From assembly GCA_965205025.1 (NCBI GenBank), contig CBDBFU010000029.1:11299-75298 (forward strand): 64,000 nucleotides of DNA, written 5' to 3'. Under the pieces are notes generated by a model. That model made no database searches. It saw nothing but the letters and a program-made list of their open reading frames with translations, and was not told the DNA's origin. Below are positions 108 to 30,716 of this stretch, piece by piece; positions within the stretch are counted from its first letter, which is position 1; each line of letters opens with the position of its first letter. Source of the stretch: Candidatus Poribacteria bacterium. Lineage in GTDB: Bacteria; Poribacteria; WGA-4E; WGA-3G. A program made the position numbers and the translations under genes.

Positions 108-363
108 ATACCATTTCTATAAATGATTCTCCCATGATTAGGTGATATTTATGTCTTGAAATACTACACAAACTGGATGAAGATTAAAATAATAATTCGG
201 TTCGGTGAATCAACGGTATGAACGCCTTTTGGCGTTCCCCGGGAAACCGAACCTACCAAGTTTGGGAAAACAGGAATTACCGAATTTAAAACTTAATCCT
301 CATGAAGTTTGTGCTACATTTAAGAGATTCTATAAATGAGATTTTAATTACCAGAAATGGTAT
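108..363. mobile_element. Composite MITE (family D) with a nested REP hairpin, family A MITE and family B element
   Basis: Terminal inverted repeats ATACCATTTCT (108) and AGAAATGGTAT (353-363) in a TA context; same ends at 29073-29303. Confidence 0.7.
177..303. mobile_element. Family A MITE (ATGAAGATTAA...TTAATCCTCAT), copy 1
   Basis: Imperfect TIR and subterminal AATTCGGT/ACCGAATT; splits hairpin CACAAACTGG|GAAGTTTGTG; empty allele at about 11297-11340. Confidence 0.85.
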
Positions 364-372
364 AGCCTTATA

Positions 373-960
373 TTAAAAGCGAAGAGGGTTGGAAATATCC
401 AGATGACCACCAAGTTTCTCTACCTCTTCACCATCAATTAGTATTTGAACATGTCTTATTTCATCAGGAAATGCTTCAAACACAGTATTGAGAATCGAGG
501 AAACTGTAATAACCTCTGCAGTAGTTCCTCCAATCTGTCCGTCAGCGAGATGATGTGAGAAATCTAAATAGGCAGTCATCTGGTTATCAATATAAATCTC
601 ATTAAGTTTCGTGCCCTCAGGAATTGGATTCCTATAATTTGGACGAGTTTCATTAACTAATGCAGTAATAATCTGCTTCATTCGTACTGTTGGATCATGG
701 AAGAGACGGAGTTCTACATATACCGCAATCAGTTCTGATAGAGTTGGATCAAAGAGGAACAATTTTACTTGTGAGGATGGTGGTAATTCGTCTGAAGTAT
801 TTGCTGTTTTTGGTAACACTGGCGGTGCATCTATGACTACTGTTTTCTTGGAATTAGAGATTAACAGCAACGTAACCGCAAGGGTAATTACGATTACGAC
901 TAAGGTAATTACCCATATAATAAATAGTCTGGAGTGTGTTATTCTACGTAAGATATCCAC
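373..960 (-). CDS. GerMN domain membrane-anchored protein
   Basis: N-terminal TM helix; IPEGTKL..I.....AYLDFS, SI.NT and VQILIDG...L.GHLD.S.PL motifs; follows an amidase gene. Confidence 0.85.
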   Translation of the reverse strand: MDILRRITHSRLFIIWVITLVVIVITLAVTLLLISNSKKTVVIDAPPVLPKTANTSDELPPSSQVKLFLFDPTLSELIAVYVELRLFHDPTVRMKQIITALVNETRPNYRNPIPEGTKLNEIYIDNQMTAYLDFSHHLADGQIGGTTAEVITVSSILNTVFEAFPDEIRHVQILIDGEEVEKLGGHLDISNPLRF

Positions 961-978
961 ATTAACATTGTATAGGAC

Positions 979-2142
979 TTATTCATCGACAGTCTTAGTA
1001 TTATCTTCAACCGATGTTGCATATAATTTTATAGAGCGTACAATAGACTTTGCCAAATTGGATATATAGTCAGGGTTGGATAGTTTAGTAGCATCATCAG
1101 TATTAGATAGGTATCCAAGTTCCAACAAAACTGCAGGCATATATACATCAGCCAGTGCAATCATTGGAAATTCTTTGAGTGTAACCTGATCTTCAGTGAA
1201 GAAATTCAGTTCGTTTTGTAGTATAGTAGCATAATCTCGGCTTTGTTTTAGATAGTTGGCTTGGTTAAGAATGTAAATTCCTCTCTGTCCAATTACTTTT
1301 GTAATACCTGCCTTGGATCGGAGATGTCCGTTTGGATTATTAATGTATAAACGCATACCTTTATGATTTTCAGCATAGGATGCGTTACAGTGAAGACTGA
1401 GAAATAGTTGTCCTTGCTTTCTATTTGTAAATTGGACTCGTTGAATGCGGGTTTTATTAATATCTTGCTCTCTGGTTAGATGTACAATTAACCCATGTTG
1501 TTTACTAAGTGTTTGTATCTGCTTAGCTACAGCAAGGACAATCTCCTTTTCAACCATTCCATTTTGGCTTTTACATCCAATATCTTCCTCCCCACCATGT
1601 CCAGGATCAATTATAACAGTAAAATGTTTAACATCATCATCAGTATTTCCATCTTCAACAGTCTTGGGAATAATTCGAACACGTTGGAGATTAGGGTTGT
1701 ATAATACAACAACATCATCAAGAAGGTGTAGAATATTCTGAAAGAAATTTATAGGCAACATTGGTTGCCCTTGTATCACCCGTGGGGGAACATTAATTGG
1801 AACATTCTTGTTATCAGAAACTATATTGACGGTATCAGATCCCATCCGTAAACGAATTTCCTTCCCTTTTGTTTTGAGAATAAGTTGTTTTTTTGGTAGA
1901 TGGTAATTATAGGTCATCTCCGAATCGAAAACATCTTTTACCGTCTCAACCGGTAGATAGACAGAATTCTCATGAAGGACAGCTTCTACCTCTGCAATTA
2001 TCTCTCCATTCATATTAACAAAACGCACGGTAGGTGCTTGCGCATAACCGTGCGTTTTAATAGAAATAATCAGAATGATATGTATGAGAAATAGGAAAGG
2101 ATAGGAGCGTAACAACGAATTATAGTTATTCTGCGTCTTCAT
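979..2142 (-). CDS. N-acetylmuramoyl-L-alanine amidase (Amidase_3) with N-terminal copper-amine-oxidase-like domain
   Basis: IIDPGHGG, EK, FLSLHCN and PAVLLELGYLSN motifs; start reassigned to ATG at 2142 because the longer ORF is an off-frame reading of the rplY tail. Confidence 0.88.
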   Translation of the reverse strand: MKTQNNYNSLLRSYPFLFLIHIILIISIKTHGYAQAPTVRFVNMNGEIIAEVEAVLHENSVYLPVETVKDVFDSEMTYNYHLPKKQLILKTKGKEIRLRMGSDTVNIVSDNKNVPINVPPRVIQGQPMLPINFFQNILHLLDDVVVLYNPNLQRVRIIPKTVEDGNTDDDVKHFTVIIDPGHGGEEDIGCKSQNGMVEKEIVLAVAKQIQTLSKQHGLIVHLTREQDINKTRIQRVQFTNRKQGQLFLSLHCNASYAENHKGMRLYINNPNGHLRSKAGITKVIGQRGIYILNQANYLKQSRDYATILQNELNFFTEDQVTLKEFPMIALADVYMPAVLLELGYLSNTDDATKLSNPDYISNLAKSIVRSIKLYATSVEDNTKTVDE

Positions 2143-2839
2143 CCTCGTCATCACGTCGTCTACGAATAAGTTCAGGTTCGGTTCTTTCCTCTTCGGCATC
2201 TTCAGCAGGTGTGCCTTCTTCACCTTCTTCACCTTCTTCGCCTTCTTCACCCTCTTCTTCTTCAACTACCTCTTCAACAATGACGCGAGGTTGACTGACT
2301 GAAACAATGACTCGTTGAAGTTCATCTAATAATTCAATTTCATCATCAAGTTCAATATCCTGTACATAAATAATATCACCAATCACCATCTCTGAAATGT
2401 CAACAGTAATATCATTTGGCATTATGGAGGGTAGACAATTAAGTGTAAGATTTCTAAGTGGAAATTCGACAACTCCGCCTTCCTGTATGCCGACCGGTGT
2501 ACCCTCCAATATAATTGGAACAGTAGATGTTACCGGTTCATCTAAAGAAATGCGTATAAAATCGGCATGAAGCAAGAGTTGTTTTTCAACAGGATGGCGT
2601 TGTATATCTTTAATTATTACCGGTTCAGGATTACCTTGTGTGATTTCCATATTAATGATTACATTTTCACCATATGTTCGGAGAAAATGCTTGAAAGCCC
2701 GTTCATTAATTTGGATGGCAATAGATTCCTGTTTCCGTCCATATAGTACTCCGGGTATATCTCCTGCACGTCTTATAGCTTTTGCATTCTGTTTTCCGAA
2801 TGTATCTCTTTGTTGTACATCTAGTTTTGCTTGTTGCAT
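2126..2839 (-). CDS. rplY: 50S ribosomal protein L25 / general stress protein Ctc
   Basis: R...GK...AIRR.G.IPGVLYG, IQRHPV and HADF motifs; acidic C-terminal tail. Confidence 0.95.
   Translation of the reverse strand: MQQAKLDVQQRDTFGKQNAKAIRRAGDIPGVLYGRKQESIAIQINERAFKHFLRTYGENVIINMEITQGNPEPVIIKDIQRHPVEKQLLLHADFIRISLDEPVTSTVPIILEGTPVGIQEGGVVEFPLRNLTLNCLPSIMPNDITVDISEMVIGDIIYVQDIELDDEIELLDELQRVIVSVSQPRVIVEEVVEEEEGEEGEEGEEGEEGTPAEDAEEERTEPELIRRRRDDEDEDAE
2212..2262. repeat. 9-bp tandem repeat encoding (EEG)n in the RplY tail
   Basis: CCTTCTTCA-type units repeated about 4-5 times. Confidence 0.7.
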
Positions 2840-2875
2840 TTTACCATTTAAACCTTTAAATCTGTGAATAAGAAA

Positions 2876-2947
2876 CAGGGCGGGTAGGATTCGAACCTAC
2901 GCATGCAGGTGCCAAAGACCTGTGCCTTACCGCTTGGCCACCGCCCT
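2876..2947 (-). tRNA. tRNA-Gln (anticodon TTG)
   Basis: Minus strand AGGGCGG...CCGCCCT-G acceptor stem; D arm TGGCCAAGCGGTAAGGC; anticodon arm CAGGT-CTTTGGC-ACCTG; T arm GTAGGTTCGAATCCTAC; no encoded CCA. Confidence 0.96.
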
Positions 2948-3838
2948 TCAATTGTCAATAAATACCCCTATTGAACTGGTTTGTGTTATAGTACAGTAAT
3001 TAACTTTATTCTTGAAGTATGTCTCACATAGTTGGGCTGCAGATTTATCCTCCATCAATGCGAAGAGAGTTGCACCACTACCTGACATTAACACTCCTAA
3101 ACAACCTTCTTGATTTGATACCTCATTTTTTAATTCAGAAAGTTTGGGATAGTTTGAAAAAACTGGTATCTCAAGTAGATTGTATAGGTTTCCTGCAATT
3201 CCAAATATATCACCAGTTTCAAAGTAAGACTTAATAATTATACAGTTATTTCCACTTCTTGTCAAGGGAATGTTTAAATTTTCGAACACTGACTTCGTCG
3301 TGATTTGTATTCCCGAATTTATTAGAACTATATATACATCTGTCAATGGAGGTAATGGATCTAAAATATCTCCTATCCCTGTTCCGAATGCTGCTCCACC
3401 ATGAAGACAAAAAGGAACGTCCGCCCCTAATTGTCGACCAATTTGTTTAAGAGCTTTATCTGATAGACCAAGATCAAATAGTTGATTGACACCGACAAGT
3501 GTTGCGGCAGCATTGGCACTACCACCTGCCAGACCTGCAGCAACAGGAATTCTTTTGTTTATATGAATGTCAATTCCACCAAAACCCCCAACTTTATCAT
3601 ATAAGGATTGTGCGGCAAGGTATGCTAAATTCTGTTTGTCTGTTGGCACATCTGAATGTGTACAATCAACAGAAATCCCATTTTTTGCACGTTTGTTTAT
3701 AATCAGTTCATCATTCAGACCAATTGAATGAAATATCGTTTCGAGATTGTGATATCCATCTTGACGTTTACCAACAACGTCTAAGTATAGGTTTATCTTT
3801 GCGTTTCCGATTACCTTTATAGTGTCTGTAGAACTCAT
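2948..3838 (-). CDS. ispE: 4-diphosphocytidyl-2-C-methyl-D-erythritol kinase
   Basis: AKINLYL, GYH.LET, KRIPVAAGLAGGSANAA, GADVPF and MSGSG motifs. Confidence 0.96.
   Translation of the reverse strand: MSSTDTIKVIGNAKINLYLDVVGKRQDGYHNLETIFHSIGLNDELIINKRAKNGISVDCTHSDVPTDKQNLAYLAAQSLYDKVGGFGGIDIHINKRIPVAAGLAGGSANAAATLVGVNQLFDLGLSDKALKQIGRQLGADVPFCLHGGAAFGTGIGDILDPLPPLTDVYIVLINSGIQITTKSVFENLNIPLTRSGNNCIIIKSYFETGDIFGIAGNLYNLLEIPVFSNYPKLSELKNEVSNQEGCLGVLMSGSGATLFALMEDKSAAQLCETYFKNKVNYCTITQTSSIGVFIDN
3237..3265 (-). promoter_or_regulatory. Consensus sigma70 promoter inside ispE, pointing at tRNA-Gln/rplY
   Basis: Minus strand TTGACA-17 nt-TATAAT, exact match to consensus. Confidence 0.8.
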
Positions 3839-4746
3839 TCAGGTGTATCTGATTTCTCAGGATCTGAAATATGTGTAATCTTCATATCATCATTTAAAAA
3901 TGGCTCAAAATCAAAGTGACTATCATCGATATCTACATTTAAATGTACATCTGATATTTTGATTATTACACTTGTTTGTTTAAGTGGTCTTTCAATTTCA
4001 ACGATATTAGGTCTCAGTATGCCGTCTACTTCGCGATAACCAGAGAAAACTGCTCTTTGTTTAATAGTATCTTTAGAGTCCTTAACTACCCATTCAGTTA
4101 CACGTGGTTCGTTATTCTTTACTTGGACAGTGATGTTTTCTGTATGTTCTGCATCTAATCCGGGACGTGTAACAATAAAATGACCTCCTGAAGTCGTAAC
4201 ACACAATTCCTTAGTTCTACCATCAAGGAATGGATTTGCGAAAATGGCACTTAACACATCGGTTACGCGTAAATCTATACCAAATATCTCATGTAAGATA
4301 CTATCAGATAGTTTTCCGACGTAAACTTCTTGTTCATCAAGTAAGGCAAGGAGAAATTTTTTTCGGTTTGCTATTGCCACCCCTTTCGTATCAGTAAACC
4401 CTCCTAATGCTTGGATTCGAAGAAGTTCACTACCATCAGATGTTTTTTTATACCATAACATCTCATGTAATTCTTCAGGAGGAGAATCTGCTTCTTGAAT
4501 CCTAACCATCATCTTGGTAGTTTTTAATGAACCTGTTAAGTCATACCGTTCCTGTAATGTTTGTAAGTGCGTAGAAAATTCGTCTGATAGTTCCGTAGAA
4601 AATGAATCAGTGTTTGATGTAGTTACCACACATCCATTAAAGATAGTTACAACAAAAAGAGTCATCCAATAACAAATCAGTGCTATTGGATGATTGTCCT
4701 GCCAAGAACTTGAGGTGGTAACTTCTATATTGATCCGTTTATTCAT
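3835..4746 (-). CDS. Putative lipoprotein, LolB/DUF4292-like fold
   Basis: Hydrophobic stretch ending in FNGC lipobox; DGILRP and LNVDIDDSHFDF C-terminal motifs; occupies the lolB position upstream of ispE. Confidence 0.55.
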   Translation of the reverse strand: MNKRINIEVTTSSSWQDNHPIALICYWMTLFVVTIFNGCVVTTSNTDSFSTELSDEFSTHLQTLQERYDLTGSLKTTKMMVRIQEADSPPEELHEMLWYKKTSDGSELLRIQALGGFTDTKGVAIANRKKFLLALLDEQEVYVGKLSDSILHEIFGIDLRVTDVLSAIFANPFLDGRTKELCVTTSGGHFIVTRPGLDAEHTENITVQVKNNEPRVTEWVVKDSKDTIKQRAVFSGYREVDGILRPNIVEIERPLKQTSVIIKISDVHLNVDIDDSHFDFEPFLNDDMKITHISDPEKSDTPE

Positions 4747-5937
4747 TTAGTAAACCTGTGACATAGACTCTTCAACTATGTTCACTGCTTCTTCTACGTG
4801 AGCAGCATTAATATTCAAAGGTGGTAGGAATCGAAGTACATAGTCGTTTGTACAGATGGTAACCAGTCCATTTTCAATACATTTTGCTGCGAGTGGTTTA
4901 GCATCTTCAGACATGACGAGACCTCGCAACAATCCTTTTCCACGTACTTCTTCAATTGGATATTTACCTTTTAGTTCCATTAGACCACCTGCCAGATAAT
5001 TTCCCATTTTCACAGCGTTCACGGCAAGATTCTCATCAAGGATTGTTTTTACTGTTGCACAGGCAGCAGCAGATGATAAGAAATTACCTCCGAATGTTGC
5101 CGCATGTGTACCTGGAACAAAACTATCAGCCACCTTCTGTTTTGCCAACATTGCCCCTATAGGAACACCACTTCCTAATGCTTTTGCCATGGTAATTACA
5201 TCTGGAACAACACCATAGCTTTGGTATCCAAAAAATGTACCTAATCTACCCATTGCTGTCTGAACTTCATCAAACATGAGTATCAGGTCATGTTGATCAC
5301 ACAATTCACGTAAACCGTGTAGATAACCATCGCTGGGTATATTTACTCCACCTTCAGACTGAATTGGTTCAACTAATATAGCACAAGTCTTTGAATTCAC
5401 AGCTGCGGCTGTTGCGTCAAGATCATCAAAAGGAACGTACTTAAAGCCTTCCAACATAGGTTCAAAACCAACGTGGTATCTTGGCTGTGCGGTTGCTGTG
5501 ATAGTAGCCATTGTGCGCCCATGGAATGAGTTATCCATGGTAATTATTTCATAAGCATCTGTTTTGCCATTATCTTTTGCGTATTTCCGTGCGATTTTTA
5601 TTGCTGCTTCATTGGCTTCTGCCCCACTATTACAGAAGAAACATTGATCCATATCAGAATTATCAATCAACATTTTTGCTAATTCTGCTTGAGGATGGAT
5701 ATAATAAAGGTTCGAGGTGTGCAATACATTTCCTGCTTGCTCACGAATTGCTTCTACAACTTTAGGATGCCCATGTCCTAAACCGTTAACAGCTAATCCA
5801 CCTAAAAAGTCAAGATATTTCTTTCCATCTGCATCCCATAAGTAAGGTCCCTCACCTTTGACAAATGCAAGACTTCTGTCTCCATAGGTATTAATTATAT
5901 ATTTTGTAGCCAACGATTTTATTTCGGCTGTATTCAT
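4747..5937 (-). CDS. argD: Acetylornithine aminotransferase
   Basis: NSGAEANEAAIK, SFHGRT, EPIQSEGG, FDEVQT, TMAKALG and TFGGN motifs. Confidence 0.92.
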   Translation of the reverse strand: MNTAEIKSLATKYIINTYGDRSLAFVKGEGPYLWDADGKKYLDFLGGLAVNGLGHGHPKVVEAIREQAGNVLHTSNLYYIHPQAELAKMLIDNSDMDQCFFCNSGAEANEAAIKIARKYAKDNGKTDAYEIITMDNSFHGRTMATITATAQPRYHVGFEPMLEGFKYVPFDDLDATAAAVNSKTCAILVEPIQSEGGVNIPSDGYLHGLRELCDQHDLILMFDEVQTAMGRLGTFFGYQSYGVVPDVITMAKALGSGVPIGAMLAKQKVADSFVPGTHAATFGGNFLSSAAACATVKTILDENLAVNAVKMGNYLAGGLMELKGKYPIEEVRGKGLLRGLVMSEDAKPLAAKCIENGLVTICTNDYVLRFLPPLNINAAHVEEAVNIVEESMSQVY

Positions 5938-6088
5938 AAACTACTCCTTAAGTTTTCTTAATACCAACTCTAATTGATTAGCTTACATTATTGGCATTAG
6001 GAAATAGTTATTTATTTCAAAGTTATTCCTATAGACATTCCGTCCCTACCAAATCAAGGAATCAAGAAATCAACGGTATGAATGTCAT

Positions 6089-6203
6089 ATGAAGATTAAT
6101 TTTTAAATTCGGTAATTTTGGAGAAAGATCCCGTGCGGTTAGGAAACCGCACCTACCGGGTTTGGGAAAATTAGAATTACCGAAATATTTACTTAATCCT
6201 CAT
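6089..6203. mobile_element. Family A MITE, copy 2
   Basis: ATGAAGATTAA...TTAATCCTCAT with internal REP GTGCGGTTAGGAAACCGCACCTAC; splits hairpin GAATGTCAT|TAGACATTC. Confidence 0.85.
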
Positions 6204-6296
6204 TAGACATTCCCCGGGTATGAATGCTATTTAGCATTCCCTGGGTGTGAATGCCATTCAGGCATTCCCCGGGACTCAAAACCAATAAATCATAGT

Positions 6297-6382
6297 CTAA
6301 AATTGACGCCTATGAATCAACGGTATGAATGCTATTTAACATTCCCCGTGGTTAGGAAACCGCACGATTAGCGTCAATTTAG
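6297..6382. mobile_element. Small TIR element (family G)
   Basis: CTAAAATTGACGC...GCGTCAATTTAG ends; orphan left ends near 21234 and 21454. Confidence 0.55.
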
Positions 6383-6384
6383 AT

Positions 6385-6632
6385 ACACCTTTCGCCCCGC
6401 TGGGGCTTAGTGTTTAGGATTTGTACGTTTTCTACACACCTTTCGCCCCGCTGGGGCTTGGTATATTGGTGATAACGATTTCTATAAACATTCCGTCCCT
6501 ATGGGACTCAAGATAGTGGATAAACACGTTTTCTATAGACATTTCGTCCCTACCAAATCAAGGAATCAACGGTATGAACGACATTTAGTCATTCCCGGGT
6601 ATGAATGCCATTTAGGCATTCCCCGGGACTCA
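6385..6632. repeat. Tandem REP-like palindrome array (family C), about 50-bp period
   Basis: TTCTA(T/C)ANACA followed by hairpins GCCCCGCTGGGGC or GTCCCTA(C/T)GGGAC. Confidence 0.8.
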
Positions 6633-6752
6633 TAAATGCGTATATGATAATCCTTGTTTCAGATAAGTCATAATGTAAACCTATAAATTGAAAATAGTAT
6701 AACAAGACTTGGGAACAATACCATGAAATTGGATGTATATATTTTCTATTAT

Positions 6753-7886
6753 CTACCAATTTGTAAAAGATCCGTCATCTCGCGTATAACCGTATGGAGG
6801 TCCATATTCTTGTGATGTAACATTCGTAAGTGCATCTTCGTTGAATTCAATCCCTAATCCTGGCGATTCAGGTGGTAATAGATAACCTGATTCAAAAGGC
6901 ACTTGAACAGGAAAGACATCGGTTAGAGAGGACATTGGAGGACGTGGGAGTTCCTGTACACCTACTAATGGAGAAGATAGGCATAGATGTAAACATGCCG
7001 CAGTAGACACAGGACCCAGGGGATTGTGTGGTGCCAAATATATATAATGTGTTTCGCACCATCCAGCAATCTTCCGTGCTTCTGTTAGACCACCAGCAAT
7101 ACATAGATCTACTCGGCAAAAGTCTAATAATTCCTCTTCTATTGCTTCACGGAATTTCCATTTACTATCATATTGTTCTCCAACTGCAATAGGAACAGAT
7201 GTTTGCTGACGGAGGCGTCTTAGACTTCCAGGATTTTCACTTCTGAGTGGATCTTCAATGAAGAATGGGTTGTATTGTTCAACTTTGTTGCAAAAATCGA
7301 GCGTATCTGCTGGATCTAAGCGAGTGTGGACATCAACAAGGATTTCAATATCATCTCCAAAAGCATCTCTAACAGCTTGTACTTGTTTTACTCCGTATTG
7401 TACTGCCCGTCTTGGTTCAAATGTGTCACTCCCAGAACCATCAGCCAAACCCCATCTAACAAATTTCCAACCTGCTTCGTGAGTTTTTCGACAGTTCTCA
7501 ACAAGAGTCTCAGGTGTAGCACCTCCATTATGTGGATAACAGACGACCTTGTCTCTTGTGCGTCCACCTAATAGTTCATATACTGGAACATTCAGTGCTT
7601 TTCCTTTAATGTCCCATAAGGCTATATCTACTGCACTGACTGCTGCTGACTGAACAACACCCCCTGGAAAGAATCCACCTCGGAACATTACCTGCCATAG
7701 GTGTTCAATCTGGAACGGATCTGCACCGATAAGAAATGGTTCAAATGAACGTATTACCTCTGCTAATGCTAAGGAACGTCTGCGAATACCACCTTCACCT
7801 ACTCCATAAATACCTGTATCCGTTTCAACTTTAACAAAGAAATGACCTGCCTCTGAAACAAAGGATTTGACATTCGTGATTTTCAT
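6753..7886 (-). CDS. Mandelate racemase/muconate lactonizing enzyme family protein (galactonate dehydratase-like)
   Basis: SAVDIALWDIKGK..PVYELLGG, DVH, FIEDP, AVGE and APHNP motifs. Confidence 0.9.
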   Translation of the reverse strand: MKITNVKSFVSEAGHFFVKVETDTGIYGVGEGGIRRRSLALAEVIRSFEPFLIGADPFQIEHLWQVMFRGGFFPGGVVQSAAVSAVDIALWDIKGKALNVPVYELLGGRTRDKVVCYPHNGGATPETLVENCRKTHEAGWKFVRWGLADGSGSDTFEPRRAVQYGVKQVQAVRDAFGDDIEILVDVHTRLDPADTLDFCNKVEQYNPFFIEDPLRSENPGSLRRLRQQTSVPIAVGEQYDSKWKFREAIEEELLDFCRVDLCIAGGLTEARKIAGWCETHYIYLAPHNPLGPVSTAACLHLCLSSPLVGVQELPRPPMSSLTDVFPVQVPFESGYLLPPESPGLGIEFNEDALTNVTSQEYGPPYGYTRDDGSFTNW

Positions 7887-7924
7887 ATATTTTCCAATCG
7901 ATTATATATAGATGTAATACGGAC

Positions 7925-8743: not shown

Positions 8744-8796
8744 TATAAAACTTAAATAGTGTGTTTATGAACATATTTTTCTTTAAATTGTAGAAT

Positions 8797-10359: not shown

Positions 10360-10552
10360 TGGGACATAGCACTCCGCTGGAGTGCAAGGTGTTGATATAA
10401 CTTTTTCTATAGACATATCACCCCTCATGAAGTTAAAGAATTTATTCGGGTAATTTCCAGTTTCTTGTAGAATCCGTGCGGTTAGGAAACCGCACCTACC
10501 AGCTCTGGGTCCAAATTACCTATTTTATTTTTTTAACTTCATCTGGGGGTGA
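10360..10552. repeat. Family C REP-like hairpins, the second interrupted by a family A MITE
   Basis: CATAGCACTCCGCTGGAGTGC, then TCACCCCTC[MITE]CTGGGGGTGA. Confidence 0.75.
10427..10542. mobile_element. Family A MITE, copy 3 (divergent)
   Basis: ATGAAGTTAAA...TTTAACTTCAT ends; internal GTGCGGTTAGGAAACCGCACCTAC. Confidence 0.8.
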
Positions 10553-11296: not shown

Positions 11297-11428
11297 GTAT
11301 GTCTTGAAGTCCTTCACAAACTGGAAGTTTATGCTACATTATGTTTTCTATAGACATAGCACTCCGCTGGAGTGCGCGCTCTACCTGTATCGGTTTTCTA
11401 TAGACATTTCACACCGCTGGTGTGAAGA
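11297..11428. repeat. Uninterrupted GTAG REP plus two family C hairpins
   Basis: CACAAACTGGAAGTTTATGCTAC; GCACTCCGCTGGAGTGC; TCACACCGCTGGTGTGA. Confidence 0.75.
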
Positions 11429-11482
11429 ACTCTAACGATCACAAGGAAGCTAATAAACATCAGCATTCCAGCTATCCTATGG

Positions 11483-11598
11483 ATGAAGATTAATTTTTAA
11501 AATCGGCAATTTTGGAGAAAGATCCCGTGCGGTTAGGAAACCGCACCTACCGGGTTTTGGGAAAATTAGAATTACCAAAATATTTTCTTAAACTTCAT
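11483..11598. mobile_element. Family A MITE, copy 4
   Basis: Near-identical to 6089-6203; splits hairpin TATCCTATGG|TCATAGGATA. Confidence 0.85.
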
Positions 11599-11765
11599 TC
11601 ATAGGATACTATTTAGATGAAACATTAAAAATACTTCTGCCAAAACCTGATCTTATTGTTATTGAGCAAATCACACAGCATCTCGTTTCTATCGGTGCTA
11701 TTCGTCACACACAATTAGAACTAAATCCATGATAATTGGCGAAGGTATTGATACTATAAAATATA

Positions 11766-20794: not shown

Positions 20795-20869
20795 CAATAA
20801 GTTTTTAACGTTCCTTATCAGTCTTTCGGATGTTTAGGAGGTCTTGTTGCTTTCATTGGTGTTATTATA

Positions 20870-21520
20870 CTATAGTTTGGACAGTATTAAGTGTTACGCA
20901 TTTCGTCCCGCCAAATCAAGGAATCAACGGTATGAATGACATTAAGTCATTCCCCGGGTATGAATGCCATTAAGGCATCCACCGGGGCTTAGTGTTTAAG
21001 ATTTGTACGTTTTCTACACACCTTTCGCCCCGCGAATCAAGGAATCAACGGTATGAATGACATTAAGTCATTCCCCGGGTATGAATGCCTTATGGCATTC
21101 CCCGGGACTCAAGATAGTGGATAAACGCGTTTTCTATAGACATTTCGTCCCTACGGGACTCATATGTATATGATAATCCTTATATCAGGTAAGTCTTAAT
21201 CTAAATCTATCAATTGAAAATGGTATAATCTTACTAAATTGACGCCTATGGTTCACTGGGAAACCGCACCTACCGGGTTTGGGGAAAATAGAATTACCGA
21301 AATATGTTCTTAATCTTCATTTGTTTGTGCCTAATGGTGACGCAAACTAAAAGTTTGCGGTACAAAGAGAAATCCACAATCTTGTGCATATTGGTTTAAA
21401 CAAAAGGATACTTTCATTGGAACTGAATTTACCAGAACCAAGAGCATGATAACCTAAAATTGACGCTATGAATCAAGGAATCAACGGTATGAATGCTATA
21501 AAGCATTCCCCGCCTACCGG
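20870..21520. mobile_element. Composite intergenic element cluster (F left end, B and C units, E right end, half family A copy, REP, G ends)
   Basis: CTATAGTTTGGACA at 20870; family B at 20912, 21034 and 21470; spacers shared with 6385-6700; family A right half 21257-21320. Confidence 0.78.
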
Positions 21521-21581
21521 GTCTATGAGAGTAATATTGTGGGTAAAATGAAGTTCATATACCTATTATCAAACTCACGTT

Positions 21582-22298: not shown

Positions 22299-22357
22299 GT
22301 TATTTACCCCGTAATTTGTAAATATAAATAGTAAGTATTGTCTTCTCTATTCGTAAA

Positions 22358-23569
22358 TTATTCGTGCCTTAAAGCGTCGATTGGATGCAATTTTGCTGCT
22401 TTCCATGCTGGGTATGCACCAAAAAACACACCAACAAGTGCACTTACAATAAATGAAAGAATACCGTAAACTGGAGAGATAACTGTACGCCATTCCCATA
22501 TTGATGGTACAAGTAATGCTCCACCTATTCCGACTCCTACACCGACGATTCCACCTATCAATGCTAAGGTAGTTGATTCAACAAGAAATTGGACAAGGAT
22601 ATCTAACCGTTGTGCCCCCACAGCCTTTCGTAGACCAATTTCTTTTGTCCGTTCAGTAACCGATACCAACATAATATTCATAATACCAATACCCCCTACA
22701 AGTAAAGATACTATAGCAATTCCCAAAATCATATTAGTAAAAGTCTGTCCTGATGCTTCAAACATTTCCATGAATTCTGCTTGATTTCGAACGTGAAAAT
22801 CAGGTTCTTTATTTGCAGGTATTTTGTGTTGTTTACGTATTATTTCCATAACTTCAGCTTCAGCAGTTTCAAGTTCTTTATCTGAATTTGCTTGGACACT
22901 AATACTTGACAAAAATTCATTTCCAAATACACGTTTCATTGCAGTAGAATAGGGAATGAAAACCTGATCATCTGGATTCCTCCATCCACTTGCCCCTTTC
23001 TCCTTCATCACCCCTAAGACATGGAAACTTACATTCTTAATTTTAACTGTTTTCCCAACCGGATCTCTGTTGCCAAATAGATTGTCAACAACTGTTTTAC
23101 CAAGAACACAAACACGCTGTCTGTAGATGATATGATTTTCTGTGAAAAACATACCATTCTCAATCTGGAAATTAGCGGTGACAAGATATTCTGGAGATGT
23201 ACCTACAATGGTTGTGTTGGTATTCTTATTGAGATATTTCACTTGTGCCCGACTACTGATTTCCGGTGTAGCATAACGGAAACTCTTTCCGCGGACTCGT
23301 AACATGTTTAGATCTTCTACAGTAAGTGTTCTACGTGCATCAGCTGATCCCCGTCCACGAAACATGCTCTGACCGGGACGAACAGCAAGGATGTTTGCCC
23401 CCAACGTTTTTATCCTATCGGTAATATCTGCTTTCGCACCTTCACCAATTGATGTCGTTGTGATGATTGCACCAACACCGATAATTACTCCTAACATTGT
23501 CAGTATTGAGCGAAGTTTATTAGCCAATAATCCATGAAAAGCGTTTGCTAAACTTTCTAAAATGCTCAA
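22358..23569 (-). CDS. MacB/FtsX-like ABC transporter permease
   Basis: RS.LTMLGVIIGV, GGIGIMNIMLVSVTERTKEIG.RKAVGA and YPA.KAA.L.PIDALRHE. Confidence 0.93.
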   Translation of the reverse strand: MSILESLANAFHGLLANKLRSILTMLGVIIGVGAIITTTSIGEGAKADITDRIKTLGANILAVRPGQSMFRGRGSADARRTLTVEDLNMLRVRGKSFRYATPEISSRAQVKYLNKNTNTTIVGTSPEYLVTANFQIENGMFFTENHIIYRQRVCVLGKTVVDNLFGNRDPVGKTVKIKNVSFHVLGVMKEKGASGWRNPDDQVFIPYSTAMKRVFGNEFLSSISVQANSDKELETAEAEVMEIIRKQHKIPANKEPDFHVRNQAEFMEMFEASGQTFTNMILGIAIVSLLVGGIGIMNIMLVSVTERTKEIGLRKAVGAQRLDILVQFLVESTTLALIGGIVGVGVGIGGALLVPSIWEWRTVISPVYGILSFIVSALVGVFFGAYPAWKAAKLHPIDALRHE

Positions 23570-23590
23570 AACCTATCCTCCTGGTATATT

Positions 23591-25633
23591 TTATCTACCT
23601 CTGGATCCACCACCCATGCGTCGTACAGTGGAAGCAGGATTTGACATCATTCGTCTAAACATTTCACTACCGGCATTACCTCGTTGGAATCCACCAATTG
23701 CCACCATATCCCCTTCTGCGAGTCCAGAGATTACCTCTACCTTATCAAAGCTACTCACACCAACAACAATTGGTAGTGGTCGTTCTGGTTGACCATCAGG
23801 ACCAATCTTCCTGACCATTTTATTTCCTCGCATATCAAGTATCGCTTCTGATGGCAGAGTTAGAATACCAGTTTTACTCACTGCTGAGATCTTTACACTT
23901 GCATTCATTCCTGGTTTTAGAAATGGCATCTTAACGGATTCAGTCTGTTCTTGCTGCGTAACGTCTATAGGTGGTGGACTGGGTGTATCCTCTATGAGTC
24001 CACCGAAAAGAGCACCCCAATCATCTTCATCCTTATCCTCTTTTTCTTCAACGGCTTTTATTTCGTCAGGTTTTTCTGTAGTTGTCTGCTGTGGATTAGC
24101 TTCTTCTATCGGATTCGCTTGATCACCTGCTGGCTGTCGTTGTTGACGCATTTGACGGAATCGTTCTCTCTGTTCCTCAGTCATTGATTCCATACCACCG
24201 GGTCGTCCAGCAGTTCTATTACGCATTCCTTGACGTGAAACTGGTGCTCCAACATTTTTTAACTCAGATGTAACCTCAAAGGTAGTAATATTCTGAATAA
24301 CCTGTCCTAAAGGAGCGATTTTCAACACCTCTCCATCAAACGGCATATCTGGATATGCTTCAACGGTAATTGTCACAGGTTGTCCAATTTGGACTTTTCC
24401 AATATCGGTTTCATCAACCTCTGTCACAACATACACAGTATTAAGATCTGCCATTGTAACCAATGTTTGTCCTTCTGAAGAGGCAATTGATGATAGACGA
24501 GAAGTGATAACCTGTCCCTCTTCAACTTTCTTTTCAAGGATTGTTCCGGATATGGGAGCTTTAATAATGGTGTCTTCGTATTCGATTTGACGTAGGTCAA
24601 GTTGCCCTTGACTCCGTTTTAGAGATGCTCTTGAACTTTCTAAGTCATGTTCTTTTCTGTCAATCTGTTTCTCATTTGTCTGTGCGAGTAATAGTGAATC
24701 CTCAGCTTGAGCGATCCGTTGTTGCTGTAATTCAATATCCATATCTCTGGATTCTTCCGCTTCAATCTTCTCATTTGCGACTTCCAGTGAAAACTCCGCT
24801 TTTCTAATATCTGCCTGTGCCAATTCAAGTTCGACTTCACTTGCGGGTTGTTTAACTAACTTTAACTGTTCTACAGAGGAATCATATCTTGCTTTAGCCG
24901 ATTGAAACTGTGCTTCAGAAGCATCAAGCGCTGCCTTAGAAATAAGCTCCTGATCGTGTAATTCAGTATTTCTTTTATGTTCTTTCTCCGCTAATTCCAT
25001 ACTGACTTTATCTTGTGTTACTGAAGCTTGTGCGCGTTTCTTCGTTTCGTCACGCACCGTTTCAGATGTAAGAAGTTTATACCTTAGATTAGCAATTTTT
25101 AGGCTATTTTCTGCATCTTTGACACCTCGTTTATTTGCTATCTTCTCAAGTCGTATCTGCTCTTTTAGTTGTTCTAACCGTTTTTTTGCTTCACCGAGTG
25201 ATTCTTTTGCTTGCCGTATCTGAATTTTGGATTGCTCTTTCTGTAGTTGTATGTCAATTTCTGATTGTTGAAGTCGTGCTTCTGCTGCTTTTAGATCAGC
25301 TTGTGCTTGATCTAAACTAATTTCAACATAGGTCTTTTCGATGACGGCTATGATATCGTCCTTTTCCACATAATCTCCAGCGTCAACTCTCAACTCTAAA
25401 ATCTTTCCACTTGCTTTTGAGCTGATTTCAACAATATTCAACGGTTTGATTGTGCCAGTTGCATCAATTGTAACGGCAATATCCCCACGTTCAACAGTTG
25501 CTGTTTGTACAGCAGGAGCGTTAGAATCTTTATCTCCATTCTTCGTAGCAAAGACCATGCGTCCGACCACAACTGCAGCAGCAACGACAAGAACAACCAC
25601 ACCCACAATAGTAATTAGTTTCCACCTTCTCAT
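23591..25633 (-). CDS. Efflux periplasmic adaptor (MacA/HlyD family) with extended coiled coil
   Basis: TM anchor; ATGTI.P...VEISSK.SG.I, I.API.G.I, VDE.DIGKV and LKPGM motifs. Confidence 0.88.
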   Translation of the reverse strand: MRRWKLITIVGVVVLVVAAAVVVGRMVFATKNGDKDSNAPAVQTATVERGDIAVTIDATGTIKPLNIVEISSKASGKILELRVDAGDYVEKDDIIAVIEKTYVEISLDQAQADLKAAEARLQQSEIDIQLQKEQSKIQIRQAKESLGEAKKRLEQLKEQIRLEKIANKRGVKDAENSLKIANLRYKLLTSETVRDETKKRAQASVTQDKVSMELAEKEHKRNTELHDQELISKAALDASEAQFQSAKARYDSSVEQLKLVKQPASEVELELAQADIRKAEFSLEVANEKIEAEESRDMDIELQQQRIAQAEDSLLLAQTNEKQIDRKEHDLESSRASLKRSQGQLDLRQIEYEDTIIKAPISGTILEKKVEEGQVITSRLSSIASSEGQTLVTMADLNTVYVVTEVDETDIGKVQIGQPVTITVEAYPDMPFDGEVLKIAPLGQVIQNITTFEVTSELKNVGAPVSRQGMRNRTAGRPGGMESMTEEQRERFRQMRQQRQPAGDQANPIEEANPQQTTTEKPDEIKAVEEKEDKDEDDWGALFGGLIEDTPSPPPIDVTQQEQTESVKMPFLKPGMNASVKISAVSKTGILTLPSEAILDMRGNKMVRKIGPDGQPERPLPIVVGVSSFDKVEVISGLAEGDMVAIGGFQRGNAGSEMFRRMMSNPASTVRRMGGGSRGR

Positions 25634-25776
25634 CGAAATACCCCCTAAATAAAACTCTTATACAACGGTTACCTCTGTTAATTTTTATTATTCTCTTATT
25701 ATATTATGTCAAATAAGTTATTGAATAGTTCGTATTATATTACAAGGTATTATTTATTGTTATTCAAAAATTTATT

Positions 25777-26793
25777 TTATCTAATTGGCATATTAACAGC
25801 CTTATCTCTGCGTTCATGCATATTCTTTTCCATAGACTCAGGATATCTGTCAGTTAGATAAGATATGTCATTCAATCTATTGAGTTCTTCATCATTTAAC
25901 TTGCATCCATCAACGCCAAGATTATCCTGTAAATGTTCAATTCTACGTGCCCCGACAATTACAGATGTCATTGCATTTTGTTCTAATACCCACCTGAGCG
26001 CGATCTGCGCGGGACTATATCCCAATTTCTCCGAAACATCAAGGAGTGTTTGTAAGGTTTCATCTGCATTTGATGCGAAATAGCGTTGTGGAAATGCCCA
26101 TCCTTCTTCTGAACGCGATCCTTGCTGCATACGTTCTCCAGGTTTATATTTACCAGAGAGGAATCCGCCTGCTAATGGACTCCAGACAACAATCCCTAAT
26201 CCTTTGTTTTTACAGAGTGGTACCAATTCTTGCTCTATATCACGAACAACAAGATTATATATGGGTTGATAACAGACAAATTGTTCAATGTTATTGGACT
26301 CGCTAATCCATAATGCTTCAGAGAGTCTCCATGCTTGATAATTGCTGCATGCAGTGTATCGCACCTTCCCTTGACGAACTAAATCATCTAATGCTCTAAG
26401 CATCTCATCCAAAGGTGTTTGTGTGTCTACATGATGAATATAATATATATCAACATAGGTCCGTCTGAAGTCTTTTAAGACTATCGTCGATGGCTTGCAT
26501 AATATGAACTCGTGACATGCCAGAATCGTTTGGGACCTTTACCCATTGGATTGAAAAACTTAGTTGCAATAATTGCATCACGCCGGCGTCCTTTTAATGC
26601 ATTCCCGAGTATTAACTTCTGATTCACCATCTCCATAAGAATTGGCAGTATCAAAGAAGTTGACGCCAGCATCCAAGGCGAGTTGTACCATCTGTTTCGA
26701 TTCTGCTTCATCCGTTCCGTGTCCAAAGGTCATTGTTCCTAAACAGATTTCTGATACCTTTAGTCCAGATTTACCAAGTCTTTTATATTCCAC
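25777..26793 (-). pseudogene. Aldo/keto reductase with three +1 frameshifts (probably sequencing errors)
   Basis: MEYKRLGKSGLKVS.ICLGTMTFG, FDTA.SY, IIATK, LQTDY.D.YY.H and WSPLAGG.LSGKY spread across frames. Confidence 0.85.
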
Positions 26794-26812
26794 TATACCC
26801 TCACTTATTAAT

Positions 26813-28544
26813 CTACATATTATTCCCCGGTACTACTTTTTCTGCTACTTCCAAAATTCCATCAAGGACGTCTATTACCTCTTGGTCAATTTGATCTATT
26901 GCTACAAACTTTACTAATGAATGGTAGTTTGATTTTTGCATGAGATTAGGTAAATTTAACCGTTTGTAAAATGATGTAAAAAGCGGATCCAAAAAATCAC
27001 TACTTATTTTCATATCTGGAGACCATGGTGACCTTTTTCCAAGTGTAATCAGTGCATTCTCGATTTCTTCGATTGCTTCTTCCATTTTAGAAACCCAGTC
27101 CGTAATGAATAACTCTCCTTCCTCATTTGCTGCTTGTGCCCTTACCCATTCAATTAGTACATGCTTGCTATTGATGATATAATTCTCTATCTCACATTTT
27201 TTCCAAGCATATTCTGTTAATTCTAACTGTGAATGGAGTTCATCTGGTATTCGATCATATAAACAATAACCAACCAAATCAGGTTTTGCCTCGCGTAACC
27301 CATAAAAGTGATCTCGTGCCTTCCCAGGTTGATTACCGACATACACTACAAAGGGAGAGGTAAATAAATCTTTTACAGGATGATTAAGTCTTTCAGAAAA
27401 TGCTCTGAGAATTGCAAGATCTGTCGCACCTTCAAGGTAAAGAACCCATCCTCTCTGTTCTGCTTGATAATATTGCTCGAAACCTATATTTTTTAATGAT
27501 TTTAATACTTGACTGCCGCGGTCATCAATACGATGTGGTTTCCCAAGAAATGCAATGACCACATCTCGTTCTGCTGCCTCAGTTAGAATTACCTCAGAAT
27601 GACTGGCTGCAATGATTTGACAATTGAATTCAATTGCTGATTCAATTAATACTTGATAAATCTGTCGTTGTCGTAGGATTTCAAGATGTGCATCTGGTTC
27701 ATCAAGAAGTAGAACTGAACCGGGATTTGCAGCAATATAAGCAAGTAATAGTAATGTTTGTTGTAAACCACGTCCAGATGAAGAAAGGTCTAATGATATT
27801 CCTGACTCATCTTGGTAATCCATCGTCACTTCTCCCCGCTCCTGAATATAATACGGATTATTCACTTGAACGTCGAATAATTCATAGATTTGTTTAATGA
27901 GTTTATCCCATTTTTCGGCATCCTGTGAAACTTGGTAGCAAATATTACGCAAGACCTCAGCTGTCCTTCCTTCTCCAATCCGAACTCCAATAGTTCCTTG
28001 TTCTAATCTGATTTCGTTTGAAGGCAAGTCCAGACAATGGTGGGAGAAAAGCCACTGATAAATCTGAAGCTTCCTCAGCAACCGGCATCTGTTGTTCTAC
28101 TTTACCATCAATTTCTTTAATTCTGAGAGGTCTGCAGTAAAAGGATTCTTCGTTTGCATAATCAAATTCAAAACCACATTCCCATGTTTTTCCATCAGTA
28201 ACACCTTCAACAACAATATCTATCCGAATGTATTGAGTGGTTTGCTTACCTTCAACTCTTCTTACATCGCGAACATGCAAATTCCTCCAGAGCAATCGTG
28301 CATTGGGTACAGGAATAGAAATTAGATCACGGTGGTTTATAGCAACTCCTGAGCGTTTCTCTGGATTAGGTTTTCCTTTTCGTTTTTCATTCCACCGTTT
28401 CAGTCCTATTTCCCACAATGCCAAAGTCTGTAATGCTGTAGTTTTTCCCGAATTATTTGGACCAATGAATACCACTGGATTCCCCAATTCTATCTCAACA
28501 TCACCAAGGTTCTTGAAATTATGACAAATTAACTTCGTTAGCAT
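26813..28544 (-). CDS. OLD-like ABC/AAA ATPase with C-terminal TOPRIM-like domain (one frameshift near 28020)
   Basis: Walker A GPNNSGKT; signature SSSGRG; Walker B LLLDEPDAHL; SHS; YLEGATD acidic motif and later EIENY. Confidence 0.8.
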
Positions 28545-28566
28545 ATTGCTCCAGAATCAACATATA

Positions 28567-28866
28567 CTATAGTTTGGACACATTCATGCGTGAACTCAAT
28601 ATAAGAAATCGGTTTACTTTAACTGTACTATATTCTGACTCAGTATATAAAATGAAACCCTGATTGTTCCAGCGGAACGGTATGTAGGGAATCGACACAT
28701 AGCACTCCGCTGGAGTGCAAGATTGTGCCGATCATGTTTTCTATAGACATAGCACTCCGCTGGAGTGCAGTATTCTTGTAGGGTTCCACTGATATATTCA
28801 ACGTACAAAAAAGACTTATCATTAGAAGCTCAATTTCCCAATGGATAAGAATTGTCCAAACTATAG
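28567..28866. mobile_element. Family F MITE, TA-flanked, carrying two family C hairpins
   Basis: Perfect 14-bp TIR CTATAGTTTGGACA/TGTCCAAACTATAG with TA on both sides. Confidence 0.85.
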
Positions 28867-28868
28867 TA

Positions 28869-29071
28869 ATACCAACTCTAATTGATTAGTTTATGTTATT
28901 GGCATTAGGAAATAGTTATTTCTATAAACATTCCGTCCCTACGGGACTCAGTATATGTTAATGACGTATATTCTATAGACATTCCGTCCCTACGGGACTC
29001 CAATTCTTACAACTAATTAGTCCTATTTAGATGAAAAATCGTAATGTAGATATTTCAATTGAAAACGGTAT
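28869..29071. mobile_element. Family E MITE carrying two GTCCCTACGGGAC hairpins
   Basis: ATACCAACTCTAATTG...CAATTGAAAACGGTAT; first ~50 bp nearly identical to 5961 onward. Confidence 0.75.
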
Positions 29072-29072
29072 A

Positions 29073-29303
29073 ATACCATTTCTAAAAAATGGGTTCGTAT
29101 TACAGGTTTTTGTGATATGTAATCTGATACGCCACAAACTAAATGAAGATTAATTTTTAAATTCGGTAATTTTAAAGAAATACCCCGTGCGGTTAGGAAA
29201 CCGCACCTACCGGGTTTGGGAAAATTAGAATTACCGAAATATTTTCTTAATCTTCATACAGTTTGTGCTACAAAAAAGAGACATCTTCAATTAGAAATGG
29301 TAT
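29073..29303. mobile_element. Family D MITE containing a REP split by family A copy 5 (29143-29257)
   Basis: ATACCATTTCTAA...TTAGAAATGGTAT ends; CACAAACTAA[A element]ACAGTTTGTGCTAC. Confidence 0.8.
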
Positions 29304-29326
29304 AACATATAACCTGATAGAGTTTT

Positions 29327-30388
29327 TCAGGAAATGACAACTGTATTTCGCTCTGAGCGGAGTGCAGCTTCATAAACCTTCATAACCTCTAATGCGAACT
29401 CAAGCGAACCTTTTTCGGCAGGTTTACCTTCTAAGATACAATCACAGAAATATCGCATTTCTTGATAGAATCCTTGAATAAATAGACCCTTGTTTTCCAG
29501 TGACCCAAGTGAGAATTGAGGTTCCCATACTATTGCTCCACTATCAAATCCTTTCGTCATAAAACTTGTACCGCCCGAATAATCGTACTGCATACCACGT
29601 TGTAATAGAACTTGTGTGCCATTTCTAATTTCTGCATGGCATCCATTACCGAAGAATTGGTATAGTTCTGAAGGTTGTCCATGTCTTGCTCCATCGGCAA
29701 GATGAAAATTACCGAGAACTCCATTGGCAAATTCTATGATACACACCCCACCACCGTGTTGACTTCTGTGAACTGTTACAGACGAAACCTTGCCACCGAC
29801 AGCCAATAAAAGTGATAATGGATGCACACCATTCTGTAGCCAGTTCGTATGTTTACCTTCACGGATAATACGTTCACCATCACTTGGGATGATCATTGGG
29901 TAAACTCCCAACATTGTTCGTAATGGACGGTATTGCTCTGTTTGAAAAATCTCAACAATCTTTTCGGTTGCCGGCATAAATGCCTTCTTGAAACCTACAA
30001 CTACAACCCTATCCTTTTGATGGTGGATCATCTCCTCAATTTCACTTGCAAACATTCCTGGCGGTTTTTCTAACCACACATGTAGACCAGCATCAAGTGC
30101 TTCACACGTCAGTTCTGGGTGTAATCTTGGTGGTACACAGAGAAAAATAGCATCTAAGTCTTCATTTTGAAACATCTCTGCCATGTTGTCATAGCATGCT
30201 TTTACTCCGTATTGCTGTGCAGTAAGTTTGGCACGGTCAATATTTACATCACAGAATGCTTGTAACTTTACAGGAAGAAAGGTCATTGTTGGTAGAACAT
30301 TGCGGTATGCATGGGAACCAACACCAACGACTGCAACGTTTAACCTTTTTTCAAAATCTCTCTGGTAACTCATACTATAGTTGAACAA
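29327..30388 (-). CDS. Gfo/Idh/MocA family oxidoreductase
   Basis: VGVGSH, DAIF.C.P...H, HVWLEKP and NGVH motifs. Confidence 0.9.
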
Positions 30389-30449
30389 TTTTCAGATATT
30401 TTAGGTTGATCTAATACTAAAGCAGATGCTTGAATCAAAAAAATATCAA

Positions 30450-30524
30450 TACACATTTCGCCCCGCTGGGGCTTGGTTGTGGGCTTTATCCGTTTTCTAC
30501 AAACATTTCGCCCCGCTGGGGCTT
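30450..30524. repeat. Two family C hairpins
   Basis: ACATTTCGCCCCGCTGGGGCTT present twice. Confidence 0.8.
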
Positions 30525-30572
30525 CTATTATTTTACATTGAAATATTTTCTTTGAGTAAATTCTGTGTGTAT

Positions 30573-30716
30573 ATGAAGATTAAAATAATAATTCGGTAAT
30601 GTGTTAGAAATTCGAATCAACGGTATGAATGCTATTTAGCATTCCCCGTGGTTAGGAAACCGAACCTACCAAGTTTGGGAAAATGGGAATTACCGAATTT
30701 AAAACTTAATCCTCAT
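30573..30716. mobile_element. Family A MITE, copy 6, containing a family B element (30614-30647)
   Basis: Ends match copy 1; splits hairpin TTCTGTGTGTAT|TTACACACAGAA. Confidence 0.85.

Follow-up and report, generated by a model that had tools for sequence, protein, structure and literature searches.

Miniature elements and their IS630-family parent at the tips of DNA hairpins in a probable poribacterial sponge symbiont

The stretch analysed here, called the window, is 64,000 nucleotides of contig C29 (CBDBFU010000029.1) in a 33-contig, 5.66-Mb assembly, labelled G000, that probably represents a poribacterial sponge symbiont. It carries six full-length copies of a MITE (miniature inverted-repeat transposable element), all on the forward strand and each flanked by the arms of a DNA palindrome. 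An initial annotation of the window had described these six elements with their ends and inverted arms, and all six were borne out. Every copy starts with ATGAAG and finishes with CTTCAT or CCTCAT.

Copy 1 (177-303, 127 bp, nhmmer score 84 bits) lies within a larger, MITE-like host repeat, whose central hairpin it occupies; the arms of its target hairpin lie at 167-176 and 304-313, with base g at both ends of the MITE. Copy 2 (6089-6203, 115 bp; arms 6080-6088 and 6204-6212) occupies a hairpin resembling a repetitive extragenic palindrome (REP), within a cluster of such hairpins. Copy 3 (10427-10542, 116 bp; arms 10418-10426 and 10543-10552) belongs to a diverged subfamily that starts ATGAAGTTAAAG, and its hairpin family carries six insertions genome-wide. 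Copy 4 (11483-11598, 116 bp; arms 11473-11482 and 11599-11608) is the sole window site with unlike flanking bases, g to the left and t to the right. At copy 5 (29143-29257, 115 bp; arms 29133-29142 and 29258-29267) base a is duplicated, and element and arms together fold into a single continuous hairpin (-32.2 kcal/mol, z = -7.1, none of 200 shuffles as good). Copy 6 (30573-30716; arms 30561-30572 and 30717-30728) is a 144-bp subtype with a nested REP-like hairpin, and its stem is unique among the filled sites of the genome. The annotation had counted the same single base at both ends of five of the six elements, which holds with site 4 as the exception, and five stem sequences, which holds with sites 1 and 5 in one stem family.

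An empty hairpin of the site-1 type, with 8-bp arms, loop gga and one mismatch in the right arm, lies at 11315-11333. It had been taken for an empty allele of site 1 at about 11297-11340; the empty hairpin is real, but it belongs to a paralogous copy of the host repeat. A seventh, partial MITE copy is a 3′ fragment on the forward strand at 21251-21320, matching profile positions 53-123, and abuts a 15-bp right-end remnant (21236-21250) of an IS4-family insertion sequence (IS) that targets the inner hairpin of the MITE. Rfam covariance models detected no RNA family at any MITE copy, the sole match in the window being a tRNA at 2876-2947.

Other repeats accompany the MITEs. REP-like hairpins (gaatgN...Ncattc, with conserved tails) are clustered genome-wide, occur in the window at 6204-6270, and are also nested in the 127- and 144-bp MITE subtypes (177-303 and 30573-30716). 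A repeat of about 320 bp at 10783-11104 matches dozens of contigs of the related genome G004 at 78-87% identity and is an abundant dispersed element.

Genome-wide copies and their parent

A profile built from the six window copies gave 336 nhmmer matches in the full genome, 116 of them full length. These are non-coding, 104-181 bp long (mostly 113-148 bp) and have a hairpin fold. A transposase-coding element with the same ATG...CAT ends had been predicted, and pairing of end motifs found it: an IS of 1,241 bp, present in six copies plus one 1,244-bp variant (L053). These seven copies, L047-L053, all with both flanks available, have their terminal 28 bp or so in common with the MITE, and same-orientation comparisons among the six of 1,241 bp gave 99.9-100% identity; the MITE carries terminal inverted repeats of 11 bp or more. 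Protein search located eight intact transposase open reading frames (ORFs) in the genome; seven match the query exactly, and that of the 1,244-bp copy does so almost exactly. The MITEs are non-autonomous and derive by deletion from this IS630-family IS of the same genome.

The transposase is a 384-aa DDE enzyme encoded by a single ORF, with two N-terminal helix-turn-helix (HTH) domains. It scores 181.7 bits with the NCBIfam IS630 model NF033545 (cut-off 100), and Pfam reports DDE_3 (PF13358, 80.6 bits) with HTH_32, HTH_29 and HTH_23, the combination of DDE_3 and paired N-terminal HTH domains that marks the IS630/Tc1-mariner group. Its AlphaFold model has a mean predicted local distance difference test score (pLDDT) of 88, and the nearest folds are Mos1 mariner complexes (E 3e-10 to 2e-9).

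Long MITE copies (C26:41879, C32:142925 and C28:18525, two of them of 1,590 bp) were considered as the autonomous parent and rejected. These copies, L001 (G000:C26:41879-43468), L002 and L003, are MITEs with an unrelated IS4-family IS in their inner 20-bp hairpin. That IS has CAT-type ends of its own, makes a 20-bp duplication and moves by itself in metagenome-assembled genomes (MAGs) of Poribacteria; 70%-identical copies are found in Candidatus Poribacteria MAG chromosomes. It is about 1.45-1.49 kb long, scores 211.7 bits with NCBIfam IS4_1, and has target duplications of 19-20 bp in 31 of 37 copies, at targets resembling GG-N16-CC. In 20 of the 37 the duplicated target is the whole 8+4+8 MITE hairpin or a free copy of it. 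Duplications in the IS4 family measure 9-13 bp (PMC2266710), about half those of this IS. Another idea, under which the MITE would be related to Nezha and the small hairpins would be dispersed repeats of cyanobacteria, found no support and was dropped; the relatives point to Poribacteria.

Target hairpins were scored as perfect Watson-Crick stems of at least 6 bp directly adjacent to the element, skipping no more than 4 nt on either side; the background came from 200,000 random positions and from 1,154 positions 100-300 nt away. Such stems flank 99 of the 116 full-length MITEs, compared with 0.83% of random and 0.95% of nearby positions (binomial probability of 99/116 by chance, 8e-187). With a second measure, of fixed geometry, mismatches allowed and at least 7 of 10 pairs required, 97 of 116 qualify against a background of 0.52%. 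The 17 weak sites are mostly stems with one mismatch or truncated flanks. The initial annotation would have fallen had genome-wide flanks been no more palindromic than background; palindromes proved about 100-fold enriched.

Because many copies occupy the same repeat families, flanks were also grouped by permissive clustering. The median stem reaches 6 bp or more in 19 of the resulting 25 clusters (binomial 5e-35). The filled sites hold 43 different 8-nt stem cores, and with these and the 25 flank clusters there is no single REP consensus of the kind that REP-targeting IS elements use; beyond the closing pair, the arms are without any conserved base. The parent IS follows the same rule: all seven evaluable copies are at hairpin tips, six of these being REP-like and the other having a unique stem, each with the junction geometry described next.

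At 81 of the 99 stem-bearing MITE sites exactly two unpaired bases lie on each side (2+2 geometry), and 104 of the 116 copies have the same base at both ends (A 46, T 27, G 19, C 12). Together, 2+2 geometry and a matching flank base fit a 3-nt loop whose central base has been duplicated. Insertion into TA with TA duplication, as in IS630/Tc1-mariner elements, is not what these sites display; the single duplicated nucleotide may be any base. The point is clearest in the ACAAACT stem family, which hosts site 1. Genome-wide, 48 of its copies with a 3-nt loop are filled and 81 are empty, with filled and empty counts by loop as follows: GAA 24 and 25, GGA 10 and 31, AAA 8 and 20, AAC 5 and 5. The empty loop gga pairs with filled sites reading gg/ga (the slash marking the element), as a 1-nt duplication requires, and since filled and empty paralogues have identical loops, duplication of one nucleotide is established in this largest stem family. 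An alternative framing, in which the ends would read TGAAG...CTTCA and the duplication would be TA or TNA, is contradicted in G000 by these matched empty paralogues, and fits only some sites of the distant relatives described below.

The length of the loop matters. In the ACAAACT family the 4-nt loop GGAA is filled in three copies and empty in 55 (3/58). An inventory of empty perfect hairpins over the whole genome (stem at least 7 bp, loop 3 or 4 nt) holds 900 with 3-nt and 801 with 4-nt loops; the preference for 3-nt loops is real, because 4-nt-loop hairpins are nearly as available. All 17 REPs that host a MITE imply a 3-nt loop, ata, and empty REPs have centres of 2, 4 or 5 nt. The closing pair is T-A at 66 of 85 sites, C-G at 18, A-T at one and G-C at none, and so is pyrimidine-purine in 84 of 85.

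Empty sites and other genomes

The closest species, G004, is about 90% identical to G000 and served as the comparison genome for orthologous sites. A search of G004 gave no copy of the transposase and 11 MITE matches. At C28:188069 G004 is empty and has an imperfect hairpin, one arm position of which has changed compensatorily between the species; at C20:153385 it is empty; at C20:305357 it is without the MITE and the arms are recognisable. At C27:122588 both species are filled, by different MITE subtypes in opposite orientation at an identical junction, so one tip was targeted twice. At window site 1 the host repeat, with ends ataccatttct...agaaatggtat, and its MITE (about 109-369) are absent from the syntenic place in G004, and at window site 2 the REP cluster and MITE (about 5960-6713) are replaced by 15 bp (G004 contig C109). 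In five species tried, orthologous DNA for window site 6, C16:32546 and C25:8257 was not alignable or not syntenic, and the assembled contigs of public runs, which break at repeats, held no joint skipping exactly one MITE.

As side observations, repeat load differs sharply between the sister species G000 and G004, and beside the shared MITE site G004 has about 140 bp more than G000, bounded by a 5-nt direct repeat ctaaa (L171, G004:C60:97120-97480), possibly another small insertion.

These comparisons bear on the idea that the arms travel with the element, or arise from the insertion event, and are not targets at all. It draws on the REP-type filled sites (17), for which no empty copy with a predicted 3-nt loop and hence no matching empty allele exists in G000, and on some host repeat and MITE composites that are absent as a unit in G004. 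The loops of the empty G004 sites are 1-2 nt off the clean 1-nt-duplication prediction, which between species some 10% diverged speaks for neither side. Against travelling arms, the element ends are constant whereas the arms vary between 19 or more clusters, 81 empty 3-nt-loop paralogues carry the loops of filled ones, and orthologous G004 sites without the element still carry hairpins. From the empty orthologous sites and the empty paralogues together it follows that the arms pre-exist insertion; for the REP-type targets the same is presumed. The annotation had made travelling arms a second ground on which it would fail, and at the G004 sites and the paralogues with matching loops they did not travel; this explanation is already largely refuted and we find it scarcely credible.

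Selection was weighed on the same sites. Insertion might be random or directed to TA, with hairpin tips merely tolerated, since hairpins and terminators would withstand lengthening, and the pattern a product of selection. It suits such a history that MITE and arms refold as one long hairpin, and that many targets are repeats or terminator-like hairpins in which insertion is expected to be neutral. Yet the eight IS copies are virtually identical, hence recent, which leaves little time for selection, and all seven that could be evaluated are at tips. Nor would tolerance in neutral intergenic DNA explain a position exact to the nucleotide at 81 of 99 sites, flanks that lack the TA duplication of the family, or a junction targeted independently in two species. 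We consider selection a highly improbable source of the pattern.

Other genomes hold related transposases that are 60-82% identical, both within the genus and in another family of the order. Their IS copies have hairpin arms in 10 of the 12 cases with both ends readable, from six of seven genomes; the comparison truncated the two copies from genome G001. In G020 and G038, two genomes that belong to the other family, arms of at least 6 bp flank 25 of 26 distinct MITE copies, with 2+2 geometry in 23 and a duplicated base in 24, and their stems are partly unlike those of G000, for example GCGCTCC-type stems and unique 13-bp stems. A 37%-identical IS630 element, a neighbour found in genome G006, has ends of the same kind (ATGAAC...GTTCAT), flanks TA...TA and no hairpin.

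The spacing from the second catalytic aspartate to the glutamate separates these groups: it is 59-60 residues in all eight hairpin-type proteins and 35 in both canonical neighbours, so the hairpin type falls outside the DD(34-35)E/D spacing of the family. The extra segment relative to DD35E relatives is 25-27 aa, between the second D and the E, and the triad residues themselves are invariant across 47 sequences. The insertion is predicted with confidence (block pLDDT 83-96) to run from an extended loop into a short strand. Its position presumably corresponds to that of the insertion domains of the hairpin-handling transposases Tn5, Hermes and RAG1. In a library clustered at 50% identity the clade, at least 59% identical, collapses to one representative; 12 more distant clusters were compared (32-42% identical), six of which keep the insertion and six of which are without it, and the six insertions have an invariant Pro...Trp...Leu-Pro-Ile pattern.

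The distant insertion-bearing relatives (L172-L251) come from soil, sediment and lake metagenomes, have ends ATG...CAT and show triad spacings of DD57-69E. Sixteen of their 44 distinct sites are in perfect palindromes of 6-30 bp, against 1.1% of 8,800 controls, and several of the sites are REPs of the GTAG type. In 42 of 44 a T stands two bases before and an A two bases after the element (T-N/N-A, the slash again marking the element), and the same base is found on both sides in only 10. The wider clade shares the taste for palindrome centres, with the T-N/N-A context and without a visible 1-nt duplication.

How a hairpin tip may be captured

Starting from the observed parentage, site statistics, junction geometry, pre-existing hairpins and recurrence in other genomes, we think it likely, with good confidence, that this IS630-lineage IS and its MITEs capture the tips of hairpins or cruciforms, with the sequence of the stem hardly relevant. 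The IS transposase would move both IS and MITEs by cut-and-paste. Its target would be an extruded hairpin or cruciform, arising where a palindrome has a short spacer, at best of 3 nt and with a pyrimidine-purine closing pair. On each strand the transposon 3′ end would become linked to the nucleotide at the centre of the loop; in duplex coordinates the joints would thus lie one base apart, and gap repair would duplicate that base; both loops of a cruciform would be attacked alike. Mos1 bends its target sharply and flips target adenines out of the helix (PMC5481204), and in a hairpin loop bases are unpaired from the start. A plausible benefit is a safe landing site, where the target hairpin would be extended rather than destroyed: insertion lengthens it because the element is itself a long hairpin.

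Several observations weigh against targeting that is indifferent to sequence or perfectly general, beside the unmatched REPs given above. The pyrimidine-purine closing pair is found in 20 of 21 distinct arms and in 69% of empty hairpins (P = 0.004). Occupancy differs between hairpin families from 1% to 50%; in one GC-rich family with 3-nt loops a single copy is filled and 109 are empty, and other families have none filled of 33-67. As many as 61 of the 116 copies are in one repeat family that is itself mobile, and copy counts therefore overstate independent events. Twenty-eight of the 44 distant-clade sites are without a palindrome. That the 25-27-aa insertion goes with targeting is a correlation at clade level, with one origin. 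Finally, all of the evidence lies in the present-day positions of elements, and the view that structure rather than sequence is read derives from site statistics. Given the closing-pair bias and uneven occupancy, targeting is structure-led and not sequence-blind. Of the initial annotation's proposal, then, movement of the MITE in trans, unrelated stems and the 1-bp duplication are supported, and full independence from sequence is not.

The same biases could be read as recognition of a few repeat families by sequence, as IS1397 and IS621 recognise REPs, with stem diversity made up of preferred repeats and noise. The two largest flank clusters, of 61 and 19, account for 80 of the 116 copies, and this, the occupancies differing up to 50-fold, the closing pair and the GTAG-type REPs among distant targets would all be expected. 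Against it, arms are present in 19 of 25 clusters, at least 12 stems are seen once, no arm base is conserved past the closing pair, the other genomes use other stems (GCGCTCC-type, unique 13-bp), and the distant clade adds 16 unrelated palindromes. Sequence recognition of this kind appears improbable.

Orientation also counts against the symmetric form of tip capture. In the main host-repeat family of G000 (57 MITEs), orientation relative to the host loop is 50:6, and a symmetric cruciform predicts no bias. The majority orientation, with the purine-rich loop strand on the MITE top strand, comprises 15 MITE subtypes and the minority four. The bias was not seen in G020 and G038 (7:5, a hand count), and its use as evidence for a single-strand target was dropped when it was not reproduced there; in G000 it could reflect asymmetric targeting, spread of a host-plus-MITE composite, or selection.

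The tip could instead be recognised through a host protein that binds hairpins or cruciforms, or as single-strand hairpins at replication forks. The 50:6 bias in one genome hints at an asymmetric target, and stems of 6-17 bp would space the two loops of a cruciform variably, which seems awkward for a fixed transpososome. The same targeting is however met in different host families, probably different phyla, which favours a property carried by the element, and by simple reasoning a double-ended DDE insertion into one folded strand would give no simple insertion. We take the host-factor or fork route to be unlikely. That the enzyme itself reads the structure, and that the target is a cruciform in duplex DNA, is what we infer from the distribution of sites, with the 25-27-aa insertion as the presumed targeting determinant. 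More broadly, it is possible, and we put it forward tentatively, that a DD60E sub-clade ranging from sponge symbionts to soil, sediment and lake bacteria swapped TA for unpaired DNA at palindrome dyads, with the insertion as structural adaptor.

If that is true of the sub-clade, these are natural structure-directed integrases, and their insertion maps are a fossil record of chromosomal cruciforms or hairpins. The target of the superfamily is taken to be TA, and a natural lineage that chooses hairpin tips departs from that. It would offer a tractable system for studying how a DDE enzyme reads DNA shape, given its more than 100 natural sites, its single-protein enzyme of 384 aa, an intact IS and an obvious candidate segment. 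It would support the long-debated formation of cruciforms or hairpins in vivo, at a frequency sufficient to be exploited, and explain the Russian-doll repeats of these sponge-symbiont genomes, where every palindromic repeat gives the next one a place to land and the nesting makes assembly and annotation difficult. As a tool, too, a structure-directed integrase could be of use.

Relation to known systems

Canonical IS630/Tc1-mariner elements (ISY100 and Mos1, with MITEs such as RUP and Correia) resemble the present element in transposase family, in the pair of N-terminal HTH domains, the short terminal inverted repeats and the single ORF, and in having MITEs moved in trans. They insert at TA, duplicate it and have a DD34-35E/D triad (PMC5481204, PMC2170065), whereas the present element enters hairpin tips, duplicates 1 bp, which may be any base, and has DD59-60E spacing. 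In the literature searched, as far as the sources were available (including PMC4853749 and PMC2817692) and with subscription journals, ISfinder and supplements outside its scope, we found no IS630-family element aimed at hairpin tips; an earlier description is possible. The available part of a 2024 review of prokaryotic MITEs has neither 'hairpin' nor 'IS630' (PMC10969869).

The initial annotation had named IS1397 and IS621, which target REPs, as the known precedents. This is incomplete, since IS1272 (PMC5678879) and RAG in vitro (PMC1618415) belong beside them. The REP-targeting IS elements (IS1397/ISKpn1, IS621, ISPpu9/10, ISPa11, ISRm22) likewise use extragenic palindromes, and some targets of our MITE and IS are REP-like hairpins as well, but each of those elements uses one REP consensus. 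ISRm22 inserts exactly at the palindrome axis, and the families involved are given as IS3, IS110, IS4, IS256 and IS5, not IS630 (PMC1525189). In IS110 members a bridge RNA serves to recognise the sequence (10.64898/2026.03.19.712850).

IS1272, of the IS1182 family, targets inverted repeats of varied size and sequence, and a cruciform model has been proposed for it that includes a loop-attack pathway duplicating loop bases (PMC5678879). It deletes the target stem-loop and makes no duplication, whereas here the arms are kept (99/116) and one base is duplicated; its evidence is three new insertions and database cases, compared with more than 100 sites here. No IS1182 model is among the NCBIfam matches of our transposase, which are IS630 and a sub-threshold IS481.

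RAG, of an unrelated lineage, makes a 5-bp duplication on transposition. Its strand transfer in vitro is strongly stimulated by hairpin or cruciform tips, and the four tip nucleotides change its efficiency by more than 100-fold (PMC1618415), a parallel to the influence of loop and closing pair on the IS630 element. For RAG this is an in-vitro property, rare in vivo; the bacterial element described here chooses such sites naturally and almost exclusively in vivo. The IS200/IS605 group and its palindrome-associated derivatives have HUH/Y1 enzymes, subterminal hairpins where other elements have inverted repeats, no duplication, and insertion 3′ of a short motif; our MITE, which has terminal inverted repeats and descends from a DDE element, does not belong there. 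Given IS1272 and RAG in vitro, hairpin targeting by DDE enzymes is not wholly new. What we describe is an IS630-family element combined with structure-directed targeting, both known kinds, and no new category is called for.

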